Shown here: positions 23,901 through 54,800 of the stretch, one piece after another
Numbering within the stretch: the first letter of the stretch is position 1
Layout: the number at the start of each line of letters is the position of its first letter
Assembly: GCA_002499585.1 (NCBI GenBank)
Contig: DAMH01000011.1
Location: forward strand, 15,195-79,194
Origin: Euryarchaeota archaeon UBA552
Lineage (GTDB): Archaea > Thermoplasmatota > Poseidoniia > Poseidoniales > Thalassarchaeaceae
Reading direction: 5' to 3'
DNA length: 64,000 nucleotides
Position numbers and translations under genes: made by a program
The notes under the pieces: generated by a model
Told to the model about the DNA's origin: nothing
Seen by the model: the letters and a program-made list of their open reading frames with translations, nothing else
Databases searched by the model: none

Positions 23901-26729
23901 TGTGAGCGCGTCATTCGGAATTTCCAAGCTCGCATATACTTCCATTGCTGAGTTTGGTGGAAGAGTCAGTCCTATGATTTCTTCACCACTCGTTGGATCA
24001 TAGATTCTGAGATCATCTCCCCACTCTGTGGAGCCCCATGATTGAACAACCTGATTTTCTGCTGCATTGCCAAGATTTTCTATCAACACCCATGCCATGG
24101 CGTCGCCTCCGGGGAATCCCAAGCCTTCCGAGACAGGAAGCCCCTCAGGGCCTAGTATAGATAACCCACGAGTCCTGTTGGCCTCTACAGGGATTATGCC
24201 GGAGACGCTGACAGTGGGATCTGCGTCTAACGTGAGTCTGAGTCCAAGATGCCCCTCGTCATCCCCTCCGGCCGAGGCTGGGGCAACGACTCGGAGGATC
24301 GGTATCCATGGCGTACCTGATTGTATCAGCACCCCCTGTGAGCCCCCAGGGGTCTTGTCACTCCAAGACCAACCTACGGGCAGGCTATCGTCATCCACAC
24401 TCAGAGACCAAACACCATCTTCCCTACCTGTCGAGATGACGACAGGTTTCGCATCTGAGCTTCCCCCAGGGTCAACCCTGACGGGCGTGGACGGAGCAGA
24501 TATCGTGGCATTGTAGGGGGGTACTATGGAGAGCGTTGCCTCATAGGCATCATTGTCATTTCGATTCTGGGAGATGTTTTCTCCCGGGTCCAACACAAGT
24601 TGGAAAGAATGAGTCCCCAGTCCGCCCGACCAAATAGCTTGGAACGAAACATCTGACCCGGTGCCCGACGGAGGTATTGGTTCAAGTGGCTCGGATCTGA
24701 ACCTCTTGATTTCCACACCGTCAGCCATGAGGCTGGCATCTACCCCCTCCTGAGTCTGGATGTTGCCACTATTTTCAAAGAATGCTGTAATTACAACATC
24801 CTGTCCCGGATCAGGTTCAGTCGGATCAAATATGATGCTCCTGCCATCAAGCAGCGGTCTGACATCTATGTGACCTTGGGATATGGCTGCCGACCCTACT
24901 AGAGCGTCATATGATGCATCTCCGTTTAGATCTGCAAATACGATCTCAGACCATGTCCTGTGAGGCACCTCGACGGGTTGAGTCCAGTTGGAGCCAACTC
25001 CAGACGGCGAACCAGAGTCGCCGTCGAATGCATGAATGCCCCGGCCATAGGCTACCAGAATGTCCGGCGACCCGTCACCGTCAATATTCATGGAAGCTGG
25101 TGGAGCGACTGCAATTTCATCGTTCAACACTCCATCTGGGTTAACGAGATCGAGAGTTTGTGACCATTCCAGTGTCGGTATGGTTTGATTCACATCATGA
25201 CAGCCAGCGAATCCGCTTCTTTCTTGAGTCAACCCTTCGCTGGTCATCGTCCAGGTAGCCCAGCAAACGTAATCGGATAAGCCGTCACCGTCCGAATCAA
25301 TTGGAAGAGGGGGGGCATCAGCGTAACCGTCAATTGCATTGATGGACCACAACTCGGTCTGTCCGTCCGAAATTTCAAGCGCTCTGTATTCTGCACCGTC
25401 TGCATTTCCTGTACCCCCCAAATCTGTTGGTATGGTGACTATAACCTCAAGCGCTGAATCAGCGTCTAGATTGGACAGTACTGGCCCTGGAAGGCGAAGG
25501 TGGGGTACATTGGAGTCCCCATCGGTGTTCCCCATGGATCTCGGAGCCCATGCTTCATTTCCGTTTGAACCGTCCAACTTCCATAGCCATACAGCGCCTG
25601 TGGACGAATCAGTTGTCGTAATTAGTACGAAGCCGGTACTCGGATCAGCCCTCACATATGCGGGGTCTGAAGGGTGGGTCCCAAGATCCAATGTCGCGGT
25701 CCAAATGGGGGCGGAAGGGGCAGATGCGGTCAGGTCCATCGCGACAACTTTGATTTGCTCGTCCGAATCATCCCAAAGCGCGAGGAGCGCCTCGTCCGTG
25801 CCGTCAAAATCTACGTCTGCCAACAAAACCTGTGTCGTCGGCCGATGTCCAGATATTGATACGGAAGGAGAAGGGCTGGGCCTGGATATTGACATGTCCG
25901 AATCAAACCAGCTCCATAACATCTCATCTGAATGATCACCCCCGTAGGACCAGCCCGTGAGTCCACATTCCAAGGATGGGGAGTACAGCCTGAGGTTGAA
26001 TGAACCCGAATCGTCATCATAGGCCGTGATGACTTCAATTGTTCCGTCATTGTCAATGTCGGTGAGCACGGGACTAGTTTTGACCAGCTCAGTTTCTCCC
26101 AGGTCAACCTCCCACGCAAGCTCTGCGTTATCGCTGTCTATGGCTCTTATGTGGGACCGCCCGTTATCGTCGGTTTGAACAACGAACGCAAACAGGGAGT
26201 CTGCCCCGCATCGCTCCTCGGCCCCAGCTTCAACGGTGATTTGGTTGTGCAGGCTAGCAACTGGGGTACTCAGAGCATCATTACCGAGGGAGTAGGATCC
26301 GAAAGTCCAATCTATCACTGGGTCATTGATGGAACGCAGCCTCTCTGCAGCCGACGGGTCACCATTTCTTGCACCACCGTCTGGGCCGTGGTCAATCAAT
26401 ACTGGAACTTTTGCTGAGTTCTGGCCAAACTGCCCCCAGACTGGCGACTGAGGATAATCATACCAAGGCGGTGTTTGCATTGTTTGATTTGAGTCACCCT
26501 CCAACAAGCGTGCATTGTCAACTGCGTCATTTAATTGCTCGATTTCTATGAGATGGAGACAGAAAGAGGCCTGAATCAGGATCACAAGTGACAAGGCCCT
26601 CACAAACGCCGGATCCGACCCTTCGTTCTTTCCCACGCCCCGTTTTGGATAGTGGCCATCTTCAAAGTTCGCCCAACTAGATCGGTTCAGGATGCGATTA
26701 AAGCCTATCTTCTCGTTTAACGAAGCCAT
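20919..26729 (-). CDS. Giant surface protein (~1936 aa from the chosen start): FG-GAP/integrin-alpha-like beta-propeller repeats, CARDB-like domains, C-terminal TM and charged tail
   Basis: Repeated Ca-binding loop motifs DIDNDGTIEVI, DVDFDGTDEALL, DSDGDGLSDYV, IDGDGSPDILVA, DLNGDASYDALVG (FG-GAP/VCBS-like). CARDB-like DVVITAFFENSGN...FQLVLDP. C-terminal TM IAAVFVIVIGGVLIL + SRSRNQQ, then a tail rich in K/E/R/D. The ORF could extend to 26945, but that would overlap the divergent rpo7 gene. The ATG at 26729 (MASLNEK..., followed by hydrophobic LSLVILIQASFCL) is preferred. Confidence 0.7.
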   Translation of the reverse strand: MASLNEKIGFNRILNRSSWANFEDGHYPKRGVGKNEGSDPAFVRALSLVILIQASFCLHLIEIEQLNDAVDNARLLEGDSNQTMQTPPWYDYPQSPVWGQFGQNSAKVPVLIDHGPDGGARNGDPSAAERLRSINDPVIDWTFGSYSLGNDALSTPVASLHNQITVEAGAEERCGADSLFAFVVQTDDNGRSHIRAIDSDNAELAWEVDLGETELVKTSPVLTDIDNDGTIEVITAYDDDSGSFNLRLYSPSLECGLTGWSYGGDHSDEMLWSWFDSDMSISRPSPSPSVSISGHRPTTQVLLADVDFDGTDEALLALWDDSDEQIKVVAMDLTASAPSAPIWTATLDLGTHPSDPAYVRADPSTGFVLITTTDSSTGAVWLWKLDGSNGNEAWAPRSMGNTDGDSNVPHLRLPGPVLSNLDADSALEVIVTIPTDLGGTGNADGAEYRALEISDGQTELWSINAIDGYADAPPLPIDSDGDGLSDYVCWATWTMTSEGLTQERSGFAGCHDVNQTIPTLEWSQTLDLVNPDGVLNDEIAVAPPASMNIDGDGSPDILVAYGRGIHAFDGDSGSPSGVGSNWTQPVEVPHRTWSEIVFADLNGDASYDALVGSAAISQGHIDVRPLLDGRSIIFDPTEPDPGQDVVITAFFENSGNIQTQEGVDASLMADGVEIKRFRSEPLEPIPPSGTGSDVSFQAIWSGGLGTHSFQLVLDPGENISQNRNDNDAYEATLSIVPPYNATISAPSTPVRVDPGGSSDAKPVVISTGREDGVWSLSVDDDSLPVGWSWSDKTPGGSQGVLIQSGTPWIPILRVVAPASAGGDDEGHLGLRLTLDADPTVSVSGIIPVEANRTRGLSILGPEGLPVSEGLGFPGGDAMAWVLIENLGNAAENQVVQSWGSTEWGDDLRIYDPTSGEEIIGLTLPPNSAMEVYASLEIPNDALTGDNVSTILQLCVGQSQDQTCDDIELTFVAADVVVEPPHRRMVPGPTEYRISAKMPEDATSLNWSISDLGMSLPGWLWTSTDDNLSIDGDRLEITGAQGSHVDAVIVLEQTVSLQYIQPGFLSFEGESEGPAYSLMSFSIEILQQHNASLEMANENDAASQSLEIGDTFFSVLKMRNSGNGPDSYSVSWQAKFVDDIGSPNIEVALAQENAFLTPGELQTVPLSITLGEGTDAQRPIEVTITMSSLIDQQATDFVIYNVSALQDRQWAILSVESDGENLLGRRILIDPGSSTAIQVQVRNDGNYEDSLDLSIETSLDGTIVEGWLEGSAAVDEVPTGGKASFTSNLSIPNSLVNGSLVLINFTLVAGNGIEMGSTIVEYEITRKSAWGATFSETDLEIPAEGSDLEIDIVQLGNAPSSPYISTQIVGQKGWEVEPPNTDFEMAPGETRRVSVSVTPPGNAIHSLTVDLILRIRDADGSGLTEISIPVRVEATRSFTLDGDPNWMITEEGGYPLGWVQNTGNAATSINLSVIGLPEGWSQTGPPSIAVGSGESQGIPLSLIPPPDWDKSPFIVRIGAVNEANDQSEMMMTVTPSNHSWSSTPVSMITMGGSAVLKIHGTGPTNNVVDSQSEQSLQWDPLGFWILPERSGMQNIGYVTVDGTDILGYRVEIIDLTTRPTVCSLAGSYGSIDSLCVVGEGEDTLNIRGLLVDEDGDVVDAGNITIQSGQIGYLNLSYDPWTPPPGSNTISIRIYDEFGRILFVRNQVVEIRHPDYWNLGVVGLELEPATYDPATENQRIRVLISREGLQSYDDLTCTVTLKAPGIDDRTHIVDVAGTFGPEPLIQRPESLEDGVEISVLLACKFPWDQDFDSSDDLSRIILAGEAQTSTRSEDIRTGTIAAVFVIVIGGVLILNSRSRNQQKDLEEMARRIISEREERRRVADSKVTKRPKVAAIAEVEKTEKSIEERDPVAAPMPPRTRSDEDVDDFEMRLRRLGK

Positions 26730-26862
26730 ATGCCCATCGCGCTTATAGGCAGTTGCCGTTCCGCCGGAACATCGGGATCTCCTCCAGAGGCACAGCCTGT
26801 GAAGGACGGGAACCTTCCGACGGCAAAAACCGTGGAGCGTCCCGACAAAAGGACGTAACAAC

Positions 26863-27411
26863 ATGTACACACTAATAACAAAGGAAGATACCATTCGTAT
26901 CCCTGCAGAGTATATCCGCCGGGGGAGGAAGCTCGAGGACCACATTGACGAATTGGCTCATCAAGCCTTCGAGGGAAGATTTGACGAGGATGAGAATTAC
27001 ATACTCTTGACCTTTGACCACGAGACTATTGGCCGAGGAAAGATAATACACGGCGATGGAGCGATCTATCAAAGGGTAAAATTCCGGGCTTTGTTGTTCT
27101 CCATGGACACAAATGAGATTGTGGACGGAGCCGTCTCGGAGATTTCAGAGTACGGCGCATTCGTCAGAATAGGCCCCATAGAGGCACTTTTGCACAAATC
27201 ACAGATTCTAGATGAACCAATCAATGTAAATCCAGCCGAGCGAAGGATAGAGGGCGCCAAATCCGGCAAGTTGATCGAAGTCGGCACCAATGTGAGATCC
27301 AGAATCGTTTCTAAAGCAATAAACCAGAACGACCCGAGATCCAGCAAGATCGGGCTTAATTGCAAAATGGCTGGCCTTGGCGCTCACCAATGGATCGACG
27401 GAGATGAGTAG
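26863..27411 (+). CDS. rpo7: DNA-directed RNA polymerase subunit E' (Rpo7) with S1 domain
   Basis: MYTLITKEDTIRIPAEY...GAFVRIGPIEALLHKSQILDE matches the archaeal Rpo7/E' pattern (N-terminal RNP fold, then S1 with GaFVriGp..gLlH.SQ). Confidence 0.8.
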   Translation: MYTLITKEDTIRIPAEYIRRGRKLEDHIDELAHQAFEGRFDEDENYILLTFDHETIGRGKIIHGDGAIYQRVKFRALLFSMDTNEIVDGAVSEISEYGAFVRIGPIEALLHKSQILDEPINVNPAERRIEGAKSGKLIEVGTNVRSRIVSKAINQNDPRSSKIGLNCKMAGLGAHQWIDGDE

Positions 27412-31709: not shown

Positions 31710-32480
31710 GTGGACGTTGGTGGTGGCATGCTCCCCATGAGGGGGGAGGGCGATATGCTTCTTGCATTAGTTGCGGCCGATGAGGCCCTCGATTCAGGGG
31801 AGCCTGAGATAGCAGCCAACATTGGCCAACAGATGCTTCACATGGACCTCACTATACTTCCGAGGTCTGTCAGAACACGGATCAGGGACATCTCGGCCAG
31901 AATCAAACCAGAAAATGCCATTCTTGTGGGTGGCGGCATAGGACACATGTCGGCATGGCTCCTTGATGTCTGGACCTCAGAAAATCAGCATCGCCCGTCC
32001 TCCTTCAGAATAGTAGAGGAGGGGGGCAAGTTCGGAGTGATACTTGACAGATTGATCCGCAGGTATGATGCGGTATCTTGGACCTCTGTAATTTCCACTC
32101 CATGGACTGAGGTGGTCGCAGAGACCTCGGCATGGAATGCAGCATCAGCGACAAATGAAGTCCCATCCATCAGCAAAGCACCACTTCCGTCACCAACCGG
32201 ATTGGTGGTAATAGACGTGCCTGAAATACAACGGCCTGCCTTTTTGAGGTCCGCACTGGACATTATACAGGAGGATGGCGTCATCCTGATTCTGGAACCC
32301 GAAGTCCCGACTGGCGATGTAGGCGATTTCGAGCCAGGCAATCCTCAGACTGAAGCTCAGAGGCGTGTGGATGCATTTAATTCTTGGATGGCTGTAATCC
32401 GGGAAGCTGGTGCGCGCGGTTTCAAGTCTGCCTTCGTCGAGCTGTCGGGCGCCACGCTGGTTGTTCTTGTCGGCGCATAA
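31710..32480 (+). CDS. Class I SAM-dependent O-methyltransferase-like protein
   Basis: AILVGGGIGHMSAWLL (glycine-rich SAM loop) and LVVIDVPEIQRPAFLRSALDIIQEDGVILI resemble O-methyltransferase family 3. Weak call. Confidence 0.35.
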   Translation: MDVGGGMLPMRGEGDMLLALVAADEALDSGEPEIAANIGQQMLHMDLTILPRSVRTRIRDISARIKPENAILVGGGIGHMSAWLLDVWTSENQHRPSSFRIVEEGGKFGVILDRLIRRYDAVSWTSVISTPWTEVVAETSAWNAASATNEVPSISKAPLPSPTGLVVIDVPEIQRPAFLRSALDIIQEDGVILILEPEVPTGDVGDFEPGNPQTEAQRRVDAFNSWMAVIREAGARGFKSAFVELSGATLVVLVGA

Positions 32481-33700
32481 TCCAACAAAGCCCCTGATAG
32501 TGATTCCGAGGATACTTTTGTTGTGGGCTGATAGAGTACTAAACCAGGGGCATGTAGGATTCCGTATCCAAAACGGTCGTCATGACTTGTCTGGCCTTCA
32601 TTTTTTATTGATGAATCAGCAATCCTATCCTTCATCTCTTCGATTTTCGTTCTGTCACCGTATCGTGCTAGGTCGGGCTCTCCTTGTATTGCTAGGGCGA
32701 TAACCCCCGAGACCCAAGCAGTTGCTGCTGAGGTCCCGCTGGAATAACCATACCAACTCCCGCTGTTGCTCAATAAGACGGGTACTTCAGAGGCAGGGGC
32801 TATCACTTCGGGTTTCTTGTCAGGATCCTGTCTTGGTAAAATTGGGTTTGGCCAGATCCTTCCGTTGTTGTCCCCTCTTGAGCTGCCGGACCAAACATCT
32901 CCGTTGCGGTTCACCCCTCCGACGCAAATAACATCCGAAACAGACCCTGGTGAGGCCACATCACCATCGTCATCCGCCCCGTCATTACCTGCAGCAGCCA
33001 CAACAAAAACTCCTTGATCGAGCGCATCCTCCACCGCAGATTCCAATACGTCCAAGGTTATACCAATAAGACCGGGCCCCTGGTCGCCTCCGAGACTGAG
33101 GGATATTATGTCAGCCCCCTGATCAACACACCACTCTACTGACTGAGCGATACCTTCGTCAGTACCGACACCACTTTTATCGATACCCTTTGCTATGAAC
33201 AGGTCTGCGCCTTTGGATATCCCCCCGATGCCCTCCCTTGATGAAATGATCCCGGCCATCGCAGTACCGTGGCCTTGGTCGTCGTATGGCAATGACTCAC
33301 CGTTTACAGCGTCGAACCACCCAGCTATTGTGACGCCCCTCATTCCAGGGTGACTAGGATTTATGCCTGAATCAACGACGCATATTGCCACGCCTGTACC
33401 ATCTAAATCTGAGGGTATCTCGTCTAAGCCCGTCATTCGTTCGTAATCATCCTGCCATGCCACCAGAGTAGGGGGCGGCCCACCAAATATGACTCCATCC
33501 TCATCGAGGAGCCACAGAGCCAAGATCGAGATTGATAACGCAGTTATTAGGGTTGAAACTGCTGTTATCACATAAGGTAGAGCAGATGAAATCACCTTCC
33601 TCTTTTCTGTATCTGAAAAATCGGATATTCGGGAAGTATCAACTTCTGGGAGGCTTTCGTTATCCACCTGCAACACTCCAAGAAGCCATGATGTCACCAA
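32357..33700 (-). CDS. Subtilisin-like serine protease (peptidase S8) with N-terminal membrane anchor
   Basis: Catalytic triad motifs VVDSGINPSHPGM (Asp), HGTAMAGIIS (His), GTSAATAWVSG (Ser). N-terminal TM TAVSTLITALSISILALWLL. Confidence 0.85.
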   Translation of the reverse strand: MVTSWLLGVLQVDNESLPEVDTSRISDFSDTEKRKVISSALPYVITAVSTLITALSISILALWLLDEDGVIFGGPPPTLVAWQDDYERMTGLDEIPSDLDGTGVAICVVDSGINPSHPGMRGVTIAGWFDAVNGESLPYDDQGHGTAMAGIISSREGIGGISKGADLFIAKGIDKSGVGTDEGIAQSVEWCVDQGADIISLSLGGDQGPGLIGITLDVLESAVEDALDQGVFVVAAAGNDGADDDGDVASPGSVSDVICVGGVNRNGDVWSGSSRGDNNGRIWPNPILPRQDPDKKPEVIAPASEVPVLLSNSGSWYGYSSGTSAATAWVSGVIALAIQGEPDLARYGDRTKIEEMKDRIADSSIKNEGQTSHDDRFGYGILHAPGLVLYQPTTKVSSESLSGALLDYAPTRTTSVAPDSSTKADLKPRAPASRITAIQELNASTRL

Positions 33701-34939: not shown

Positions 34940-35025
34940 TGGCGCCGAGACGGAGATTTGAACTCCGGAGGGAAAATCCCACATGATTTCCAGTCATGCG
35001 CAATACCAGGCTATGCGACCTCGGC
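34940..35025 (-). tRNA. tRNA-Ser (anticodon GGA), CCA encoded; missed by the ORF-centred view
   Basis: Reverse complement folds as follows. Acceptor GCCGAGG/UCUCGGC. D-arm GCAU-AGCCUGGUA-UUGC. Anticodon stem CAUGA/UCAUG with loop CUGGAAA (anticodon GGA). Long variable arm GGGA-UUU-UCCC. T-arm CGGAG-UUCAAAU-CUCCG. Discriminator G, then CCA. Confidence 0.8.
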
Positions 35026-35123: not shown

Positions 35124-35198
35124 GCCACTGTGGCTTAGGGGTATAGCGTCGCCTTGGTAAGGCGAAGGTCGGGGGTTCAATTCCCCCCAGTGGCTCCA
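35124..35198 (+). tRNA. tRNA-Thr (anticodon GGU), CCA encoded
   Basis: Acceptor GCCACUG/CAGUGGC. Anticodon stem UCGCC/GGCGA with loop UUGGUAA (anticodon GGU). T-arm GGGGG-UUCAAUU-CCCCC. Discriminator U, then CCA. An A9 tract follows. Confidence 0.85.
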
Positions 35199-35252
35199 AA
35201 AAAAAACCAATTCATTCGTAGGATTCATATTCCTATCACTCCTCTTCACCTC

Positions 35253-38200
35253 ATGTCCTACGCCAAGGCCAGACGCGCCATCATCATGACAGCCCTCATG
35301 CTTCTGCTACCCACGACCCAGGCTAATGTCGCAGACTGGAGGGGGCCAGACGTGGTGAAGCCCGGTCCTGATGGCTCGGAATTTACCGCCTTCAGAGTCC
35401 CAACAAATGCAACGATCGTTGACAGCTGGGTTGAGATCTCAAATGACGACACCGCCCAGTCCTCTGCTGATTTGCTCTCATGGTCGATCGAAGATGGATT
35501 GAGGTCTGGCATTCGGAGTGGAACCTCTTTCAGCTCATCTGGGGAGCTAATTCTGACAGATGACTTCACAGTCTCAATAGTTGATGATTTCGATGAAGGT
35601 AACTTCACAATAGAAATGCCAAATGGATATTACCATTCTCCGGGGGTGCTCAGTGTTTACAACATACAAGAAAGCACTGCGAACCCGAATTGTAACAACT
35701 TGTCCTCGATAACTGTATCACAAGGACACGACTTTGACGATGATGGCTATTTGGACGGCCAGGAGACAACCTCCTCCGTTGAATATTGCCCCTCCTCTGG
35801 ACTGGACACCAGCATAACCTCCCTCAACATAACCGCGGGCGGAACCGGATATGGGAACGGTAACCTCACAGCAACTGGCGGCGGAGGTTCTGGATTCGCA
35901 GGTACTTACATCTCCGGCAGAGAAATCGCTTCAGCAACCTTGAATGCCGGCGGTTCAGGCTACACCAGTGGGACCGTTTTCAATGTGGAGTGCGGCAGAG
36001 ACTGTACTGGATCCGGTGCGACCGTGACAGCTACCTCGGTAGATGCAAATGGGGCCATAACTGGCATATCACTGACAAACAGCGGTTCAAACTACACAAC
36101 CGAACATGTACTGACCCTAGTAAACACCGGTGCCTCTGGGAGGTTGGCGGACATATCCGTGACTCTCAACAGTACAGGGGAAATAGTCTCCGCGGACATA
36201 ACCTCCCTGGGGACTGACTACACCAGCCCCCCTTCAATCGTCATCAGCGGCACAGGCAGTGGCGCTGTCATAACCCCCGGGCTCGGCGGATTCTTCAATT
36301 GGTTGGCTGAGCCCCATCCAGACTCCGCCACCAACGCTTCTTGTCCAGAAGGCGGACACGTCATCGATCTAGGTCAAGATCTAGACAATGACAATGAGTT
36401 AGATCCCACTGAAATAACCCAAAACCTAACCCTCTGCCACAATCCAGACATCGACTATTGGTCGTCGGTATTGGCAGAGAGCATAGATGGAGATGTGTAT
36501 CTGGACCAGAAGAACCTGACTCACGGAGTCGTGCCCGCAAAGGCGGCGGAGGGCAAGGTAATGGCCGCAACCCTGCCCGGAACAGCCGTTCCTGCAGGCA
36601 CGGACACATCCCTCTTCCTTCCCCCGATGGAGGTTCCGGCTGACGACCTCCAGATCGGTTACACGCTATCATTCCAACACTGGTATCACGTAGACAGCAC
36701 CTCAAACGGAGGAGGAGATGGCGCCTGGGTTGAATACAGGCTCATGAACGGCACTTGGGGCAACTGGTCTTACATCGAACCAACCGGGGGATATCCGAGC
36801 ACACTTTCACCAGATGGCCCATCCGTCGATGGGCAACCTGCAGGAAATCTTCCAGTGTTCGCTTCGGAAACCCACAGCGGATGGGTATCGAACGACATAG
36901 ACCTGACTACGATACCCCAGATACAGGATTCTGACGAGATCCAGTTCAGATTCAGACTTTGGACCCATCCTTCCGCTCAGAATCTCAGGCCCGGGTGGTA
37001 TCTGGATAACATCTCCTACCAGAACGTTGGAGGAACAGATGGCGGGTGGCTCCACGGGTGCGCTTCCCCTGCCGGCACAACATGCCTGTACAGCAACTAT
37101 GCATACGGCGCGCTCCAAACCCAGTTCAGCACTCAGGGTACGAATTCGGCTTCAATCGTCAGGGTGCATCTTGAATATGACCTAGAGGGCTCCTCATTCG
37201 ATAATTTCTGTGTCGAAATGTCCTCGAACAACATAACATGGACAGACATTTCGTCTGCGACTTCCGCGACTACTCAAAATTGTGAGGACAGGTCCGGTGC
37301 AATACCCGGATCCACGGGCGATCAGAGCGGTGGCCTAATCATACAAGATTACCCCCTCCCGTCCCAATTCACCAACCAGGCGAACGTACATTTGCGCTTT
37401 ATAGTAGATACAGATGGATCGGTAGGCTACGGAACTCCACAGGATAACTTCGAGGGCCTCTTCATCACCGACGTGTCACTCGTCACACCAGGGACTTCAG
37501 TACATTGGTCCGACGATCTAGGGTCCTCGACCACATTCTTCCATTACGCGGCAACACCTCCCAGCACATCGTTTGGAGGGCCCACCGATGACTGGAATCA
37601 CATTCAGAGATTCGGCGGAGTGATAGATCAGGTACTAGGTTTCGAGAACTCCTTTGCTACGCCCCCTGAGTCTGAACACGCCTCAGGATGGAGCCACTCT
37701 GGAAGCACTGGCGGCACCACATGGGAATACGGGTTCCCAGGATCAAGCCTTACCCTGGAAGAGCCAAACAGCTTCCCATACCTATACGGCACGGACTTGA
37801 ACGGAGAATATCTGGACAATTGGAACGGATATCTCGAATCTCCGCAATATGACATCCCTACTTCAGGGGCCACCTTGCAATTCGCGAAGTGGGCCTGCAT
37901 GGATCAGTTCGATTCAGACGGAGCTGTTTTGCAATACAAGGTAAATAACGGAGGCTGGCAGTATTTCCAACCTTCAATACCAGGTTGGTATGACGGGGTG
38001 AAGACTTCATGGAACAATCCCTTCGGGACAAATGAAGTGTGGTTTAACGACGATTGTGGCCTTGATGAGATGTCCTTCAGGGAAGCCCCCCTGGACCAAT
38101 GGGGAGGAGAAACGATGACCTTCAGATTTTGGTTCCAATCAGACACATGTTGTCAAAGCTCAACATGGGCAAACGATGATTTCGAGGGATTCTACTTGGA

Positions 38201-41200
38201 CGACTTCGGGGTGCTCATTCCAAATTACAGTTCAAACGGATCATGGTTGAGCCCCGATATACAACTAACCAATCACGATTCCTTCAACCTTGGTTTCCTC
38301 GACATCGATGCTGAAATCCCAGAGGGCACCCGGGTACTTGCTTCGATAATCGATGCAACAACCATGATACCGGTCGACGGGTATCAGATGAGGTCCCTCC
38401 CGCTCTCAATGGCAGGAATAAACCCTGTTTCCAGTCCCTCAGTGAATGTCCAGCTACATTTGGAGACCGTTAACTCCAGCCTCACTCCTGTCATTAAATC
38501 AGTTAGATTAGACGGATTCAGAACCCTTTCGGCAGATTCTGGCGAAGGGAACGGATGGGAGTTCAGTCCAAGCTTGGTCATAGAAAATGGGGAGATCGTA
38601 ACCACAGGGATAGCAGGTGGGATCGATTCTGACTTCGTTACATCATCACGGCCGATCAAAGCAGTAACAGTGAGTGGAGACTATTCCGGAGTCACGCTCA
38701 GTTTCAAGGACGCAAATGGGGCAAACCTCGGACCGCCATCAGTTACTGGGGGATTGGTAGAATTCCCCTGGTCCCAGCCCGGCTTCAGAGTCGATATCTC
38801 CCTATCCCCGACCGGATACATAAATCAACTCAACATCTCTGCGAAATTTACCGAGCCCGCTAAGTCCCCAAGTTTGGACCTTGGGTCGGATGGCACCGAT
38901 GACTGGTTATTCCCGTTCGGAACCTCTTACGGACATCTGGGCTGGCAGTCGATGATCGATTCTGGTACTAGCACTAGAAGCACAAGCCTGGTGCTCGACC
39001 CATCAAACCCATCCACAGTACCTGTTATCGTCCCAGCGGGGTCATCGACCGATCCAAACCTTGATTCGACATCTTGGGTCGTATCGGGTTATCTTGCTGT
39101 GTCTCCGGTGGGAGCAGATACCCTGTTGTCTCCAGTTACGCTATCAATTGGGAGTGCATCGGTCACCACCTCCGGAACCGACGAGGGCCCAAAATACCTA
39201 CACCTCACCGGGCAGATGATTTCTGAGATAAACGCAGTTCAGACTTCTATCGAAGATACGGTTGGTAACAGGAACTGGAAGCTACTCGGATTCGAGGTAT
39301 CATCGTCGACTCAACAGGAGATTTCCATTAGCACCCTTGGGCTATCTTACTACCTCCACGAGAACTTTTCGTCTCTACAGGATATTGTTACGGCGTCAAT
39401 GGCTGCAATCCAGTCTAATTCATCCGACACGAACATTCCGTTTTCTGTTTCCTCCGACGGTGGGATGATTTCAGTCGGCGGGGGCGCGTACTATGATTAC
39501 ATTACCACCAACTATCCATTTACGCCTCCCAACACATTTGTTCCGAGAGGCGATCATTACACGCTCTACACTGAGCACAGCCACCTCTATGATAACGGAT
39601 TGATCTCCTCAATCAGGCTTGTTGGAACCACGGAGGAAGGAGATACTGCCATTTTCACGGCGACTACCGAGGGAGGCGACTGGAGCGATTCCGCTTCGAC
39701 TACTTTCCAACAATCTGGAAACGGAATCCCCGGAATTAGTCTTGTCGAGATTGAATCAAGCGTGGATGTTGTAACGGACGAAAGTGGGTCGGAAAGATTG
39801 AGAGCAAACTGGTCAATAGCTTCAACATGGGGGCCCGATGACGTTTCAACAATATCCTGGTCATCAAGTGCCGTAGACACTGACGGCCAGACGAGATGGA
39901 GTGCAGATTCTTCAAGTGGAGTCGGAGGCAGGTCGGCATATGAAAACGATCTTGAAATAGAGTCATTTACCGTCAGGAACCATCTTGGGAATTTGGTTTC
40001 GGATCAGTTTTCATCCATGTACCCCTTCCCTGTCGACCCCGGTAACAACCTGTTCATAGAAGGCTCTGTCAGGTTCGAGGGCTCTCCCGATCTGAGGCCC
40101 GATTCATCTGACTTCCTAGTGAGTGTCAACCTGTCTGGAACCTCCGTTGCAATGACATCCGGGGAAGATGGAAGTTTTTACGGGGAGTTGACGATTCCAC
40201 TTGGAACTCCGACTATCTCGCTTTCCCCTGTGATAGATTCCATAGGTCCGAATAATCAGATTGTTGGAGCATACGATCTCACAATCGACCATCCTGTCAT
40301 CAATGCGATCGTGGATCAGGATCCGCCCATCGCAGGCCCTATTCAGGTCCTTACGCCCCTCGGCTTCCAAAATGCTGCAGGGAAGATAGTCGGCCCAGAT
40401 GCACCCCTCACGGTTTACGTCACAGTCTCAGACACGGACGCCAGAGATTCTGATGTGACGCTGCGATATTGGCGATCTGGAGTGGATGATGCGAATATGG
40501 ATGGCATCCCCAGCCAAGATGAATACGAATCCATTACCGCACCACTAGCAATTGGCTTCTCAGGCGAGGAGCAAAAGGACTTCACCGGGATAGACCTCTC
40601 TGGAGTACCCTTCAATAGTCCCGTTTACATGTACATAGAAGGAACTGACTGGTCAGGACGAAGTTACCAAAGTGGAGGCACCGGCGGTGGCCCGGGAGTC
40701 GATGAGGCCTGGGCGACTCTGCTTGTAGCAGAAAACGTGGAGACTCAGATACTTGGTTCTGGTTTCGCTCTTGACAGGGCCTCTGGCTACCTCATGCCGG
40801 GCATAGAACACACATTCACGATGGTCATCGACGAGCCAAATGGAATCAGGACTTTGGACGGCATAGATTTGATGCTGTGCGATGACGGGCCAACTGGCTT
40901 GGGCAAGATGCACTGGAACCCCGCCGAGCAAATCCTCACTTCCCCGGATGATTCGTACTTGACTCTGACCGGTGCCCGGGCGACTCCCGTGCAATCAGAC
41001 TCGATCCTTTCTGTTGAGATGGATTTCATACTTGATTGGGACTTCCCATGGACTCCTGGGGACGCCCTGTGCAGCCCAAGAGTAATCATTACAGACGATC
41101 TACAGGTTGCTGCACAATCATCTTTGTTGACAACATTGTCATGGGAGTTGGACAACCAGCTGGAGGCGATTCCAAACTCGGCTTCGGACCTCACTCTGCC

Positions 41201-42458
41201 GATAGGGGAGAGTGATTCAACGGGGATCTATCTCATGAAGGGCGACTCCTTCAGTGTTAACGGCACGGTTGTGCACGCAGGATCCGGCATCCCATTCGAC
41301 ATGGACGCTGGAAATACGATGGTAGACGTCTTCTTCGTCTATGGATCTGAGCGAGTCAGTTCTGTGGCCTCGATAGGCCCGGCAGGACACTGGGCCGTTG
41401 AACTTACGCTGCCCGACAGGCCACCAGTATACCCTGTAATGGAGATCGGAACAAGCGTGATCGATCCTCCGGGCGCTGGGGGTTCCCTTGGAAACAATGA
41501 TATCTCAATTACAGTAGACTCGGCTGCACCCACAATATTGTTCGATCAGACCGCATACCCAGACAGCTCACTTTCTGTGGAGGAGTCCGATGAATTGGAC
41601 CGTGTGAAAATAACCCTTCAAATCAATGACGCCGTAGGCATGCAGCAAGGCGACTTAGAGGTAGCATGGGTCTTCAAAAGAGGCGGTGATGTGATAAGTC
41701 AGGTTTCATTTGGATCGATTCCGCTAATTGCTGATCAACCACAGTTTGACATATATCAAGGCGAAGTCGACATGCACCAATCTCTAACCACCACGCTGAT
41801 AGATGGCGATTACGCAGAGTTTTGGGTCGTCTCCACTGACCGGGCTGGCAACCAAGTCAACGGACTAGGAAGCGAGTCTTTGCCCAAAAGGGTCGATGTG
41901 CGAATCATGGAATTCCTGCCGACGCTAACCAACGTTGTTTTCGACCCGACAGATAAACCACTGCCGGGGCAAAGAGTGACCGTTAAGACATTCTGGTCGA
42001 ACCTTGGCAAGAGGGATGGGACACTTTCCCTATCACTCTGGCAAAACAACGGCGGAGAGTCGTGGTCCCAATCCCCTCCGGCTGACGATATCGAAATCCT
42101 TCTGGCCGCGGGCTCTACTAGCGTAGTGGTGGATTTGATTTACGAACCAAGTCTTCCCGGCCCACAGGTCCTCTATGTCATAAATCAGGGAGATTTTCAA
42201 AATCTTGGATACCCTGTGGAGGGAATGATCGTCTCATCAGCCGACATAGACAGCGTTTCTGAAGGAGATTCTACATTGGCATACACCTTGATCGGAGCAG
42301 CCGCCTTGATAATAGTCGGAATAGGTGCATACATGGTCAAGACTGGATCTGGCAGAAGGGACGATGACTACTACGAAGATGAGGATTTTGAGTACGATGA
42401 CGACGAGGATTACGAGTACGATGAGGACGGGTATGACGACGAGGAACAAGACGATTAG
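35253..42458 (+). CDS. Giant surface protein (~2401 aa): signal peptide, degenerate ~42-aa GxGYT repeats, three MAM/LamG-like lectin modules, C-terminal TM and Tyr/Asp/Glu-rich tail
   Basis: The ORF as drawn starts at 35154 inside tRNA-Thr. The first sensible start is the ATG at 35253 (MSYAKARRAIIMTALMLLLPTTQA signal peptide). Repeats GGTGYGNGNLTATGGG, GGSGYTSGTVFNVECG, GSNYTTEHVLTLVNTG, GTDYTSPPSIVISGTG. Three modules end in GWYLDNISYQN, GLFITDVSLV and GFYLDDFGVL, the C-terminal strand signature of MAM/concanavalin-like domains. C-terminal TM LIGAAALIIVGIGAYMV, then RRDDDYYEDEDFEYDDDEDYEYDEDGYDDEEQDD. Confidence 0.7.
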   Translation: MSYAKARRAIIMTALMLLLPTTQANVADWRGPDVVKPGPDGSEFTAFRVPTNATIVDSWVEISNDDTAQSSADLLSWSIEDGLRSGIRSGTSFSSSGELILTDDFTVSIVDDFDEGNFTIEMPNGYYHSPGVLSVYNIQESTANPNCNNLSSITVSQGHDFDDDGYLDGQETTSSVEYCPSSGLDTSITSLNITAGGTGYGNGNLTATGGGGSGFAGTYISGREIASATLNAGGSGYTSGTVFNVECGRDCTGSGATVTATSVDANGAITGISLTNSGSNYTTEHVLTLVNTGASGRLADISVTLNSTGEIVSADITSLGTDYTSPPSIVISGTGSGAVITPGLGGFFNWLAEPHPDSATNASCPEGGHVIDLGQDLDNDNELDPTEITQNLTLCHNPDIDYWSSVLAESIDGDVYLDQKNLTHGVVPAKAAEGKVMAATLPGTAVPAGTDTSLFLPPMEVPADDLQIGYTLSFQHWYHVDSTSNGGGDGAWVEYRLMNGTWGNWSYIEPTGGYPSTLSPDGPSVDGQPAGNLPVFASETHSGWVSNDIDLTTIPQIQDSDEIQFRFRLWTHPSAQNLRPGWYLDNISYQNVGGTDGGWLHGCASPAGTTCLYSNYAYGALQTQFSTQGTNSASIVRVHLEYDLEGSSFDNFCVEMSSNNITWTDISSATSATTQNCEDRSGAIPGSTGDQSGGLIIQDYPLPSQFTNQANVHLRFIVDTDGSVGYGTPQDNFEGLFITDVSLVTPGTSVHWSDDLGSSTTFFHYAATPPSTSFGGPTDDWNHIQRFGGVIDQVLGFENSFATPPESEHASGWSHSGSTGGTTWEYGFPGSSLTLEEPNSFPYLYGTDLNGEYLDNWNGYLESPQYDIPTSGATLQFAKWACMDQFDSDGAVLQYKVNNGGWQYFQPSIPGWYDGVKTSWNNPFGTNEVWFNDDCGLDEMSFREAPLDQWGGETMTFRFWFQSDTCCQSSTWANDDFEGFYLDDFGVLIPNYSSNGSWLSPDIQLTNHDSFNLGFLDIDAEIPEGTRVLASIIDATTMIPVDGYQMRSLPLSMAGINPVSSPSVNVQLHLETVNSSLTPVIKSVRLDGFRTLSADSGEGNGWEFSPSLVIENGEIVTTGIAGGIDSDFVTSSRPIKAVTVSGDYSGVTLSFKDANGANLGPPSVTGGLVEFPWSQPGFRVDISLSPTGYINQLNISAKFTEPAKSPSLDLGSDGTDDWLFPFGTSYGHLGWQSMIDSGTSTRSTSLVLDPSNPSTVPVIVPAGSSTDPNLDSTSWVVSGYLAVSPVGADTLLSPVTLSIGSASVTTSGTDEGPKYLHLTGQMISEINAVQTSIEDTVGNRNWKLLGFEVSSSTQQEISISTLGLSYYLHENFSSLQDIVTASMAAIQSNSSDTNIPFSVSSDGGMISVGGGAYYDYITTNYPFTPPNTFVPRGDHYTLYTEHSHLYDNGLISSIRLVGTTEEGDTAIFTATTEGGDWSDSASTTFQQSGNGIPGISLVEIESSVDVVTDESGSERLRANWSIASTWGPDDVSTISWSSSAVDTDGQTRWSADSSSGVGGRSAYENDLEIESFTVRNHLGNLVSDQFSSMYPFPVDPGNNLFIEGSVRFEGSPDLRPDSSDFLVSVNLSGTSVAMTSGEDGSFYGELTIPLGTPTISLSPVIDSIGPNNQIVGAYDLTIDHPVINAIVDQDPPIAGPIQVLTPLGFQNAAGKIVGPDAPLTVYVTVSDTDARDSDVTLRYWRSGVDDANMDGIPSQDEYESITAPLAIGFSGEEQKDFTGIDLSGVPFNSPVYMYIEGTDWSGRSYQSGGTGGGPGVDEAWATLLVAENVETQILGSGFALDRASGYLMPGIEHTFTMVIDEPNGIRTLDGIDLMLCDDGPTGLGKMHWNPAEQILTSPDDSYLTLTGARATPVQSDSILSVEMDFILDWDFPWTPGDALCSPRVIITDDLQVAAQSSLLTTLSWELDNQLEAIPNSASDLTLPIGESDSTGIYLMKGDSFSVNGTVVHAGSGIPFDMDAGNTMVDVFFVYGSERVSSVASIGPAGHWAVELTLPDRPPVYPVMEIGTSVIDPPGAGGSLGNNDISITVDSAAPTILFDQTAYPDSSLSVEESDELDRVKITLQINDAVGMQQGDLEVAWVFKRGGDVISQVSFGSIPLIADQPQFDIYQGEVDMHQSLTTTLIDGDYAEFWVVSTDRAGNQVNGLGSESLPKRVDVRIMEFLPTLTNVVFDPTDKPLPGQRVTVKTFWSNLGKRDGTLSLSLWQNNGGESWSQSPPADDIEILLAAGSTSVVVDLIYEPSLPGPQVLYVINQGDFQNLGYPVEGMIVSSADIDSVSEGDSTLAYTLIGAAALIIVGIGAYMVKTGSGRRDDDYYEDEDFEYDDDEDYEYDEDGYDDEEQDD
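35830..36270 (+). repeat. Four degenerate ~126-bp coding repeats (GxGYT-type) in the N-terminal region of the 2434-aa protein
   Basis: Protein-level periodicity of ~42 aa with G-G-(S/T)-G-Y-(T/G) cores, rich in Gly, Ser and Thr. Confidence 0.4.
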
Positions 42459-51858: not shown

Positions 51859-54800
51859 ATGCAGCTAAATCACAACCAGTATGCCATCGGCGCAATAGTC
51901 GCAACTTTGTGCTTGGCCGGACTCTACACTGTAGTTGACGCAATGCTGAGCACCAGTCAAACGGTAGGTTACTATGAGCCTGCAGCGGACGACATCTTCC
52001 TAGATGAAGACGAAGAGCAAATCACTGGCGAAGACTCCGACGGTGACGGAATCCCCAACAGGATGGAAGAAACACTGTACGGCACGAGTAAACTGTCACC
52101 TGACACCGATGGCGACGGGCTCGGTGACGGCTGGGAGATCGAGAATGGATTGGACCCACTCGACAGTGGAGAGGCGAGAATAACAGAACTGACATTCGAA
52201 AATCCAGATGCAGATTCTGAGGCGGGCGATCAAAACGAGACTTTCCCAGACCCGGACAATGGTCCTAACGGTGACCCCGACAGGGATGGCCTCACAAACA
52301 TCGAGGAGGCTGAAATCGGAACCAACCCTAGTGTTAGAGACTCTGATGGTGACGGACTGAACGACCTTTGGGAGTCTCTGTACTCGATCGAAATAACCGT
52401 ATCCGGATCTGAATCGTTTACCTTATTGGACCCCCTAAATCCAAACTGGGACTGCCCACTGCTAACTGCAACGAAGAAAGCAGAATTGGAACAAGCAATC
52501 GGCAGCAGTATATGGAAGGAGCTCGCCACGGGCCCCTTTGGTGAACATTCATGCGATGCCGTCCTCGACCTTGAGCCATCAGGCGGAGATACCCTTCACA
52601 ACTATCTCGAAGAACAATATTCCACCAACCCCCTCTCCGATGACAGCGATGAGGACCTGATACCCGACAGGGTCGAGGTTGCATTCGGCATTCAATACCT
52701 GGATGTGAGCTGTGGCCGATTCACTTTTTCGGTTGTAACAAAAGATGCACCCTACACTTCTATGATGACCGACGCCAACGACCAATCTTGGTTCTCTGAG
52801 GACATGGATGGCGATGGCAAGTTCAATGGGCCGGGAGATTGGGACACCGATGGTGACGGAATGCCCGACGGTTTCGAATATTGCTATGACGACACACTCG
52901 ATCCACTAAGTCCCACAGACGCCTATGGGGACCCTGATCAAGACGGCCTCAACAACCTACAGGAATACGAAGTTGCTTACACTTGGGGCCCAATCAACTT
53001 CACCAGCCCCTCGTCAAGCGACACTGATGGTGACAACATGCCTGATGGCTGGGAGCACCTGAATGGAATCAACCCCCGGGATGGAATGAACGGAATTGAA
53101 GACCCAGACATGGACGGTTTCGATTCCGATGGTGACGGTTCCGTATTCTATCGCGATCTGGTTGGCGTTTCAACAGTACAATCAATCTCTGTAGAAATTG
53201 GCGATTTCGTACAGAAAAACCAGACATTAATTTGGATCAGGACTGTTCAAGATCTGGCCTACATAAACATCCCGTTGAAAGCCCATCAAGATGGTTTCAT
53301 TTACGATATTAGCATAGAAGTCGGAGAAGAAGTCGAACGGAGAAGCCAATCTCTGATGACCATAGTCGAAGGCCATGAAAGACTGACAAACCTCGACGAA
53401 TATGAGGCCAGAGACCTCAACAAAGACGGAATCGTCGACGGCAGATCAACGAATCCCATGAATCCAGATACGGATGGCGACGGACTAATTGACGGTATCG
53501 AAGTGATCGGGTGGACAATAAGGATCGTGGATGGCACGGCTCGAGATATCAAAGTCAGGAGTGATCCAGGAGTTTTCGACTCAGATGCCGACGGCCTTTC
53601 GGACTCCGTTGAATATTACACCACATACACAAATGCCACAGACAGGGACACCGATAGCGACGGAATTGAAGACTTCACAGAGGCTATGGACGGTTTCCAG
53701 TGGAACGGCTCGGTCTATTTCACAAATGCATCCAGATTGGATAGTGACAATGATGGATTGGACGACAGAGAAGAAGTAATCGCCGGACAGGATCAATATG
53801 TCACAAATGCATCAGACATCGATAGCGATGATGATGATCTGAAAGATGGCTTCGAAGTTTTGAATATACCCCGGCCATGGCAAACTGCTACCAACCCCCT
53901 AGATCCAGATACAGACGGAGATTTACAGCCTGATGGCTGGGAGATGCAAATCACCTCGGTGGAGGATGACACCGTCAGTCACAGTCTCTGGATAGCCCCC
54001 GATAACTGGCTCCCGCCTGGGTGCCTATCCTTGATCGAGTGCGGAAGAGGCCCAGGCGGGTGGATATGGGACAACTATCTTCAGGGCTTCTCATCTTCCG
54101 GAGACCCCGACGGGGATGGTAAACTAAACCCCACATATTCATTCTCAGAACTGAATCTCACTGGATTCACGATACCAGACAACGGTAGATGGGCATTAGA
54201 TCCAAGTTTCGGCAGTCTCCCAGATTCATCGTTTGATGCAGACAACGATTCCCTGCCAAATTTGATGGAAATTCCCTCCAGATGGGATACAAACCCAGTC
54301 AAGGTAGACACCGACGGGGACCTCCTGCCAGATGGCTGGGAAGTGACATACAATGAATTCGCTGTTACTTACGGGAACATCACTCTTTCTGTGACTGAAA
54401 GAGGCCCCCTCGATCCAAAAATGATAGATTCTGACGGAGATGGAATAAACGACGGATCCGAAGACCTTGACTCAGATGGTCTGAATGTCATGCACTTGAT
54501 GAACAAATACTGCCCAGGGTGGAACGATCCTCAGAATTCCGCGTGCCACATAGACCCTTCAACACCAAGCGGATCAATATTTTATAATGATCTTGGAAAC
54601 TACACAAACTACGAAGAGTACCAGAATGGGACCCACCCAATTCTGAATGACACAGATGGAGATTTGTGGCTCGACGGAAGCGAGGTTTACCATCAAGATC
54701 AGGATGACGACTCGATGTGGAGTGGCTGGGAGTACTACTTTGGTTTGGATCCGTTCGATCCATCTGATGCTACTATAGACTCAGACGCGGATGGATACAG

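Follow-up and report, generated by a model that had tools for sequence, protein, structure and literature searches.

Three tandem beta-sandwich modules, probably of the InhA-like MAM and reelin-subrepeat group, in a predicted giant surface protein of Poseidoniales archaea

Introduction

The MAM domain is an adhesive or dimerizing jelly roll with a bound cation, and it contributes to the dimerization of meprin beta (PMC9848320). The subrepeats of reelin are jelly rolls that resemble carbohydrate-binding modules (CBMs) or galactose-binding domains and carry an Asp-box, and their Ca2+ site is common to CBMs and cleaved-adhesin domains (PMC4882317). The prokaryotic InhA-like MAM family (PF20773) has a solved example in immune inhibitor A2 (InhA2), a secreted peptidase of Bacillus anthracis with one copy of the domain (4yu5/4yu6). 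Here we describe three modules with affinities to these families in a giant protein encoded by a 64,000-nucleotide stretch of Euryarchaeota archaeon UBA552 (contig DAMH01000011.1, positions 15,195 to 79,194); by 'the window' we mean the whole of this stretch.

The window derives from the Poseidoniales (Thalassarchaeaceae), and a first-pass annotation made from the sequence alone had correctly taken the host to be an archaeon. Organic matter of high molecular weight is believed to sustain the Marine Group II (MGII) archaea, an abundant group that is as yet uncultured. In the MGII adhesion literature that we found, archaella, thrombospondin-like and flotillin genes are the only ones discussed and the giant protein is unmentioned, and our literature searches returned nothing specific on this protein or on a paper describing the InhA MAM structure.

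Results

Three beta-sandwich modules, each homologous to the other two, are encoded one after another by nucleotides 36573-38225. Module 1 (M1; 36573..37031, +), aa 474-626 when counted, as for all modules here, from the TTG of a 2434-aa open reading frame (ORF), is a beta-sandwich that is probably of the InhA-like-MAM / reelin-subrepeat type; module 2 (M2; 37032..37520, +; aa 627-789) is the most divergent copy; and module 3 (M3; 37521..38225, +; aa 790-1024) opens with approximately 40 aa of leading strands, followed by a MAM-like core that begins at GFENS (nt 37638). When profiles built from 23-25 orthologous sequences each (24 for M1, 25 for M2 and 23 for M3) were compared by hhalign, M1 and M3 aligned over 123 columns with a probability of 98.9% (E 2e-17), M1 and M2 over 121 columns with 98.1% (E 1e-13), and M2 and M3 over 126 columns with 95.1% (E 3e-8); shallow alignments had already tied M1 to M3 (96.6%) and M1 to M2 (77.5%). 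The proposal in the first-pass annotation that there are three modules of one kind is thus borne out by mutual homology, at hhalign probabilities of 95-99%, and by an all-beta model. The interval that it gave, 36990-38220, does cover the recurring motifs considered below, but the body of M1 lies upstream of that start, and although the modules precede the motifs as had been supposed, they are not uniformly of ~150 aa, being about 153, 163 and 235 aa long.

There are four cysteines in M2 (aa 636, 644, 686 and 710), which distant orthologues lack, and four in M3 (aa 915, 968, 999 and 1000). A search of the remaining ORFs, among them four that encode other very large proteins, found no additional copy of the module in the window. 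In one orthologue, P0003 from a Thermoplasmatota metagenome-assembled genome (MAG), an unrelated module of ~110 aa (residues about 95-235) stands in place of module 2, from which it follows that modules are exchanged within the orthologue family; by eye, the replacement resembles a pre-peptidase C-terminal (PPC) domain.

The reading frame examined is frame 1 of the ORF at 35154..42458 (+), and it contains all six of the strings originally quoted at their reported places, namely three motifs and, 5' of them, the W/G-rich strings WYHVDSTSNGGGDGAW, WSHSGSTGG and WANDDFEG. Motif 1, GWYLDNISYQN (36993-37025, +), is the final strand of M1 (strand E160-170 of an AlphaFold model, in residues of the modelled region), motif 2, GLFITDVSLV (37455-37484, +), is the final long strand of M2 (E312-324), and motif 3, GFYLDDFGVL (38187-38216, +), is the final strand of M3 (E558-567), in agreement with the earlier suggestion that each forms the C-terminal beta-strand of its module. 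Profile alignments place the three motifs in register, and in the model the last core strand of the predicted fold, a conserved one, is formed by the string G-aromatic-aromatic-(L/I)-D-(D/N) that recurs in them. The G and D of motif 1 are invariant across 24 orthologues, and distant orthologues have PPEG(V/L)FIDD(L/V)S at the site of motif 2, which is nearer to the consensus than is the window copy. A second recurring motif, an Asp-box/BNR-like hairpin of the form S-x-D-x-G-x-x-W, occupies equivalent columns of all three modules at about 36750-36790, 37215-37240 and 37905-37930, 3' of GAWVEY, FCVEM and AVLQY respectively; its strict form is seen in 8/24 (M1), 5/25 (M2) and 10/23 (M3) orthologous copies, and the window copies are one residue short of it. 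A hydrophobic '(I/V)xFRF' strand is a further landmark common to the modules in the profile alignments.

In a long, low-complexity sequence with as much G, S, T and D as this one, a short motif might simply recur by chance. When the window is translated in all six frames, however, the degenerate pattern G[WLFY][YFW][LIV][DT][DN][IVFL][SG] is matched at the three motif sites and nowhere else, as against a mean of 0.00065 matches per shuffled protein. This pattern was composed post hoc from the three motifs, and the independent test is homology: the modules are related by profile-profile comparison across at least 120 columns, and each motif is the identical structural element in the model. Chance recurrence is therefore rejected as extremely improbable.

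When 1.84 billion representatives were searched exhaustively with HMMER, 89 relatives emerged, comprising about 25 full-length archaeal orthologues together with bacterial proteins. In the case of M3, 21/23 orthologous copies match the InhA-like MAM model PF20773 at E<=0.01 (best E 1.3e-12) and the profile matches residues 452-564 of B. anthracis InhA2 (4yu5_A) with an E value of 6e-7, aligning YKGFAMDHVNVTVD of InhA2 with motif 3 in the final strand YDGWYIDDVGVEVD. Three orthologues scanned at full length, P0022, P0031 and P0038, pass the PF20773 cut-off of 26.9 bits with scores of 30.6-40.7, and the homologue P0004, which is 41% identical across the whole region, scores 26.1 bits against the same cut-off at the position of M3. 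For M1, Reelin_subrepeat-B (PF21471) is matched by 12/24 orthologues (E<=0.01) and PF20773 by 3/24, and the M1 profile matches reelin 3a7q (E 8e-6). Among M2 orthologues 4/25 match PF20773, and orthologous copies also weakly match F5/8 type C and NedA-like galactose-binding models. The sole match in NCBIfam is a local one, in which M1 falls (E 1e-5) on an accessory region that spans positions of about 1051-1166 in models of bacterial M36 peptidases, and orthologous M1 and M3 copies fall on the same region. Against PDB sequences, nothing meaningful came of phmmer with the three-module region or of shallow M1 and M3 profiles; M1 and M3 found matches only with the deeper profiles, and the M2 profile gave none.

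The bacterial relatives lead to the same families, with PF20773 lying precisely where M1 or M3 aligns; P0076 and P0077, for example, align with M1 exactly at their PF20773 segments. PF20773 and PF21471 match one and the same region in many of these proteins, and in the distant bacterial relative P0047 the PF20773 match overlaps one to canonical MAM (PF00629; 67 bits), so that PF20773, PF21471 and PF00629 are best regarded as one broad group of models. We consider it likely that the archaeal modules belong, as divergent members, to the jelly rolls of the prokaryotic InhA-like MAM / reelin-subrepeat group (PF20773, PF21471).

They are neither canonical MAM nor LamG domains, and the domain family to which we assign them is already catalogued. 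PF00629 has no match in the window modules at E<=10 or in 72 orthologous copies at E<=0.01, and the LamG models PF00054, PF02210 and PF13385 have none in the window modules (E<=10) or in the 72 orthologous modules; these, PF02210 apart, are the hidden Markov model (HMM) searches that had been recommended for verifying a MAM/LamG-like character. No CBM or lectin family of Pfam reaches threshold in the 72 orthologous modules, and when the protein was scanned entire and in seven segments DUF7151 alone was above threshold, without MAM or LamG. The resemblance to MAM that had been remarked on therefore survives in the sense that the nearest named family is InhA-like MAM (PF20773), although not in that of canonical MAM.

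The predicted structure is in keeping with this assignment. AlphaFold2, run on aa 455-1030 with an alignment of 30 sequences, gave an all-beta model with a mean predicted local distance difference test (pLDDT) score of 84.6, mostly above 90 in M1, and M2 modelled alone had a pLDDT of 83.9 and a pTM of 0.83. In a Foldseek search of the PDB with the three-module model, reelin repeats ranked first (E 6e-9) and InhA2 was within the top five (E 3e-6); enteropeptidase, gingipain cleaved-adhesin domains, CBM4-2 and CBM22 came next, and then neuropilin-1 MAM (5l73; TMt 0.62, rmsd 4.3), meprin and RPTPmu, the matches to enteropeptidase, meprin and RPTPmu being likewise to solved MAM domains. M2, the module searched as a single domain (M1 and M3 being compared within the three-module model), had InhA2 chains (4yu5/4yu6) as its top four matches, at E 1e-6 to 1e-5, superposing with TMq 0.56-0.59, rmsd 3.5-6.4 A and 23-25% identity, and these were followed by CBM27, meprin alpha/beta (prob 0.99-1.0) and neuropilin MAM. 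All-beta domains of beta-galactosidases were also among the matches. Each module is thus predicted to be an all-beta sandwich of the jelly-roll type, the outcome anticipated in the first-pass annotation, and solved MAM domains are among the Foldseek matches.

The LamG part of that proposal fails, with no LamG HMM match and no recognizable LamG structure in the top 50 of either Foldseek search. One entry at rank 25 (1dhk_B, E 0.026), whose listed title is amylase, is presumably a legume-lectin-like chain, and is the only entry that we recognized as such. A fold search of viral proteins in BFVD was uninformative: its matches, all with TM-scores below 0.2, were to strings of generic jelly rolls in proteins of phage tails and of host recognition.

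The gene that carries the modules most likely encodes 2401 aa, and not the 2434 aa listed for the ORF, because a tRNA-Thr gene (anticodon GGT; 35124..35198, +; ARAGORN) overlaps the TTG start and the first in-frame ATG beyond it, at 35253, opens a predicted signal peptide; what the ORF encodes in its initial 33 codons is a translation of the tRNA (..RRSGVQFPP..). A tRNA-Ser(GGA) gene (34940-35025, -) lies just upstream on the opposite strand. The coding sequence accordingly runs from 35253 to 42458 (+, stop codon included) and begins MSYAKARR... Its predicted signal peptide (35253..35324, +) has a basic n-region and a hydrophobic segment, AIIMTALMLLLP, followed by TQA, as read from the sequence, and orthologues begin with the same kind of layout. 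At the other end, a single predicted transmembrane helix (42276..42338, +; LAYTLIGAAALIIVGIGAYMV, aa 2375-2395) coincides with the only cluster of 19-residue stretches with a mean Kyte-Doolittle value above 1.8 (aa 2373-2397), and a hydrophobic stretch is seen in several of the displayed orthologue C-termini. The helix is followed by a very acidic, presumably cytoplasmic tail of 39 residues (42339..42455, +; ..DDDYYEDEDFEYDDDEDYEYDEDGYDDEEQDD); orthologue tails are acidic too, many of them ending in EEE. The protein is rich in S, T, G and D and low in K and R, with 23 N-x-S/T sequons and 16 cysteines, all of the latter in the predicted ectodomain. The signal peptide, large ectodomain, single C-terminal helix and short tail are the sequence features of a surface glycoprotein, and from them we infer a type I membrane surface protein with ~2300 aa outside the cell. 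Scans with Pfam, with the whole-family profile and of full-length orthologues revealed no catalytic domain.

Of the remainder of the ectodomain, the N-terminal part has two copies of DUF7151 (PF23657), scoring 42-43 bits in two stretches against a cut-off of 27.2, of which the better (36330..36437, +) is a module with a Cys-bracketed acidic loop. The second copy is at 35685-35789; the loops of both are Cys-bracketed and Asp-rich and resemble calcium-binding repeats, and the two copies flank a Gly/Ser-rich 'GGSGY' repeat region that some orthologues lack. Beyond the modules there follow a conserved middle ectodomain (38226..40500, +) with no Pfam match above cut-off and a fast-evolving membrane-proximal ectodomain (40501..42275, +). 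The sequence WPEPPExFPDE..PPPLPPGL is common to several orthologue tails (P0024-P0067), where it may serve as a conserved motif on which a cytoplasmic partner docks.

The close homologues are all from Poseidoniales / Thermoplasmatota metagenomes. Scanning species-representative genomes with an eight-sequence alignment of M1 gave 162 confirmed loci, and the 80 of these that were listed are all from Poseidoniales (many of them Thalassarchaeaceae, MGIIb) or from unclassified marine archaeal MAGs. In 46 loci that hold the whole gene the giant protein occurs once per locus, and gene order is kept in 42-46 of the 46 over a block of roughly 20 kb (29121-49518). This block consists of genes for D-aminoacyl-tRNA deacylase (DTD2), proline dehydrogenase, a CPxCG zinc-finger protein, an unknown protein, an S8 subtilase (-), a polytopic membrane protein (-), the giant protein (+), HhH-GPD (-), RtcB (-) and AlaRS. 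The location of the giant gene in a fully syntenic block indicates that it is a vertically inherited core gene of the Poseidoniales. The subtilase gene (32357..33700, -; Peptidase_S8, E 5e-46) is adjacent in 45/46 orthologous loci, and its product has one N-terminal hydrophobic anchor (aa 36-66). The polytopic membrane protein has zinc-ribbon-like CxxC motifs at its C terminus, and an acyl-CoA dehydrogenase gene lies between those of RtcB and AlaRS in the closest four loci only.

Across the 46 loci, M1-M3 have a median identity to the window of 43%, whereas the N-terminal part has 35% and the middle ectodomain, which was detected in 46/46, has 38%. The last ~650 aa (the region 40501..42275), by contrast, are detectable by tblastn (E<=1e-5) in only 3/46, and even in the closest genome this membrane-proximal part is 36% identical where M1-M3 are 80% identical. 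M1-M3 are thus the most constrained segment of the protein and its membrane-proximal third is hypervariable, which could reflect diversifying selection or cassette replacement.

Discussion

The closest described counterpart of the archaeal modules is InhA2, which is the source of the profile match of M3 and the best fold match of M2, shares the final strand (Y/F)xG(F/W)xxDxV, and is likewise prokaryotic and extracellular. It differs in having one copy within a secreted peptidase, whereas the archaeal protein is a non-enzymatic, predicted membrane-anchored giant with three copies in tandem. Reelin subrepeat B (PF21471; 2e26, 3a7q, 2ddu) gave the profile match of M1 and the top match of the three-module model, and has an Asp-box hairpin comparable to that of the modules, a final 'W(A/F)IDN(V/I)' strand and jelly rolls in tandem; unlike reelin, which is a metazoan secreted signalling protein with lipoprotein-receptor ligands, the archaeal protein has neither intervening EGF domains nor the horseshoe A-EGF-B repeat organization. 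Canonical MAM domains, as in meprin, neuropilin, RPTPmu and enteropeptidase, are jelly-roll beta-sandwiches of similar size that Foldseek detects, with an 'FE...GW...W' start (seen also in M3) and an 'xDD(I/V)' end, and their extracellular adhesive or oligomerizing role may be a further likeness; the link to them is solely via the InhA-like family, and any correspondence between their conserved two-disulfide pattern of four cysteines and the four cysteines each of M2 and M3 would be putative. The cleaved-adhesin domains of gingipains and HagA (PF07675; 3km5, 3m1h, 4itc) and CBM4/22/27 have the same general fold (TMt about 0.5) and are likewise found in tandem, in proteins that bacteria secrete or carry on their surface, and one bacterial relative, P0068, matches both PF20773 and PF07675. 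These are nevertheless weaker, fold-level matches with no corresponding family HMM match in the archaeal modules, and their ligands (erythrocyte proteins, xylan, mannan) are not transferable.

The bacterial carriers of PF20773 include M6 (P0076) and M14 (P0080) peptidases, S8 subtilases and type IX secretion system (T9SS) cargo proteins. Among them are the bacterial giants P0051, P0060, P0090 and P0093, extracellular proteins of 1100 to 2755 aa that have several InhA-like MAM modules per polypeptide and are direct phmmer matches of the window modules, but they have catalytic domains and sorting signals (dockerin, Por_Secre_tail), where the archaeal protein has neither and a C-terminal transmembrane helix instead. 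Two of them, P0051 and P0060 (about 2750 aa), are S8 subtilases with at least three InhA-like MAM modules and a C-terminal dockerin, and are thus fusions of two protein types that are adjacent in the archaeal locus.

The modules had been described as of a largely metazoan kind, which does not accord with distant relatives that are bacterial secreted peptidases (M6, M14, S8 and the M36 models) and T9SS cargo proteins. The idea that animals were the source of the modules, as canonical MAM or LamG domains of the metazoan type, gains something from the detection of solved metazoan MAM domains by fold, such as that of neuropilin-1 at TMt 0.62, but the sequence relatives are all archaeal or bacterial, neither PF00629 nor LamG matches the window or orthologous modules, and the gene is vertically inherited in conserved synteny. 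We consider a metazoan origin very improbable on these grounds and reject it.

A role for the modules in binding or adhesion is plausible by analogy with their relatives. The conserved strands would form a rigid sandwich scaffold, probably with a putative structural metal site such as that of MAM, reelin and CBM relatives, and variable loops at one edge would provide the binding surface; with three modules in series in the outer half of the ectodomain, the whole could project from the cell and bind an extracellular partner multivalently. This partner would more likely be a protein, or another copy of the giant protein itself, than a free glycan; a protein is favoured because InhA2, reelin, MAM and those bacterial relatives that are linked to peptidases offer the analogies. 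To our knowledge, none of InhA2, reelin or MAM is a recognized glycan binder. Candidate protein partners are a foreign protein, the substrates of the neighbouring subtilase, and the giant protein itself.

More specific functions can be weighed against this general one. Were the modules lectins or CBMs attaching the cell to particles of algal polysaccharide or glycoprotein, the fold matches to CBM4-2, CBM22, CBM27 and beta-galactosidase domains, the weak matches of orthologous M2 copies to galactose-binding models, the CBM-like or galactose-binding-domain-like nature of reelin subrepeats (PMC4882317) and the reports of MGII as algal-saccharide degraders that are sometimes particle-associated (PMC6336850, PMC6461757) would all fall into place. 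The CBM matches are, however, one to four orders of magnitude weaker than those to InhA2 and reelin, no CBM or lectin family reaches threshold in the orthologous modules, the nearest relatives accompany peptidases rather than glycoside hydrolases, and no glycoside hydrolase gene adjoins; on balance we think glycan binding unlikely. Self-association seems equally doubtful, the modules in that case making homophilic contacts like those of MAM in meprin and RPTPmu within an S-layer-like coat or other envelope scaffold, of which the giant protein would be a structural component and not an adhesin for foreign ligands. Its appeal lies in the presence of one copy in each of the 46 syntenic loci, predicted to be anchored by a C-terminal helix, in the strong conservation of M1-M3, as expected for a fixed partner, in the part played by MAM in meprin beta dimerization (PMC9848320), and in a composition (rich in S, T, G and D, 23 sequons, low K/R) typical of archaeal surface glycoproteins. 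Such features are drawn from sequence, several other giant surface proteins in the window are equally eligible as envelope components, and our literature searches gave no MGII S-layer protein.

The subtilase upstream suggests a third possibility, that the modules capture proteins or peptides and hand them over to this anchored enzyme. Modules of the PF20773 type are fused to M6 (P0076), M14 (P0080) and, in at least three copies, S8 (P0051, P0060) peptidases and occur in the M36 models; the subtilase gene is 1.4 kb upstream and divergently oriented in 45/46 genomes; and MGII are considered to be extracellular protein degraders (PMC6336850). But synteny is just as strong over the whole 20-kb neighbourhood, which includes genes for a tRNA-ligase, AlaRS and proline dehydrogenase, so that adjacency to the subtilase says little about function, and the giant protein has no catalytic domain of its own; the two genes are, moreover, on opposite strands with another gene and two tRNAs between them. 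Substrate capture therefore seems rather unlikely. A bolder and still more speculative proposal, to which we attach a low probability, is that the protein serves cells of Marine Group IIb as their main binding organelle facing outwards, its modules binding one fixed partner while the hypervariable third diversifies under viral pressure; the partner might then be dissolved or particulate protein passed to the S8 subtilase, or other copies of the protein in an envelope lattice. If this were true, it would offer a molecular handle on the attachment and feeding of the most abundant uncultured archaea of the surface ocean on high-molecular-weight organic matter.

Returning to the assignment of the modules to the InhA-like MAM / reelin-subrepeat group, and to the binding role proposed for them, several observations weigh against one or the other. 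None of the window modules reaches any Pfam gathering score: the best match of M1 is Reelin_subrepeat-B at 15.7-16.2 bits (cut-off 27; E 0.009-0.013), that of M2 is DUF5017 at 15.2 bits (E 0.015), and M3 has no Pfam match at all. For PF20773 itself there is none in the three window copies even at E<=10; they are too divergent for its cut-off, and M1 and M2 score better or equally weakly with other models. Membership of PF20773 consequently comes by way of orthology and profiles and not from the single sequence, and a family match above threshold, which was to have decided the matter, is provided by the three full-length orthologues and not by the window's own copies. In the multi-domain Foldseek comparisons the TM-scores are low (0.15-0.21), the clean single-domain comparison being that of the M2 model only. 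The structural metal site is assumed from relatives, and it is by analogy that we infer a binding role in the orthologous group. We know of no established function for the MAM domain of InhA2.

With the family catalogued and tandem arrays known in bacteria, the gain is one of annotation and hypothesis and not of a new principle. What is new is the recognition of these modules in a conserved, hitherto unannotated giant surface protein of MGII, of which they are the best-conserved part: a syntenic, predicted membrane-anchored protein of ~2000-2400 aa that is annotated only as hypothetical probably carries three InhA-like MAM modules, and these provide a well-delimited fragment of ~560 aa that can be expressed and used in studies of binding. 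The archaeal MAM-like fold would accordingly be that of a widespread prokaryotic family, found in most cases alongside secreted peptidases, and not that of an animal-type adhesion module.

The four other very large ORFs in the window, none of which has MAM-like modules, have domain contents of their own. The largest (4445-13378, +; 2977 aa) contains Transglut_core, Big_3_5, TSP3_bac and DUF4129, that at 20919-26945 (-; 2008 aa) has FG-GAP_3 and CARDB, and those at 1510-4386 (+; 958 aa) and 51859-54888 (+; 1009 aa) have NPCBM_assoc/FixG_C and TSP3_bac respectively.

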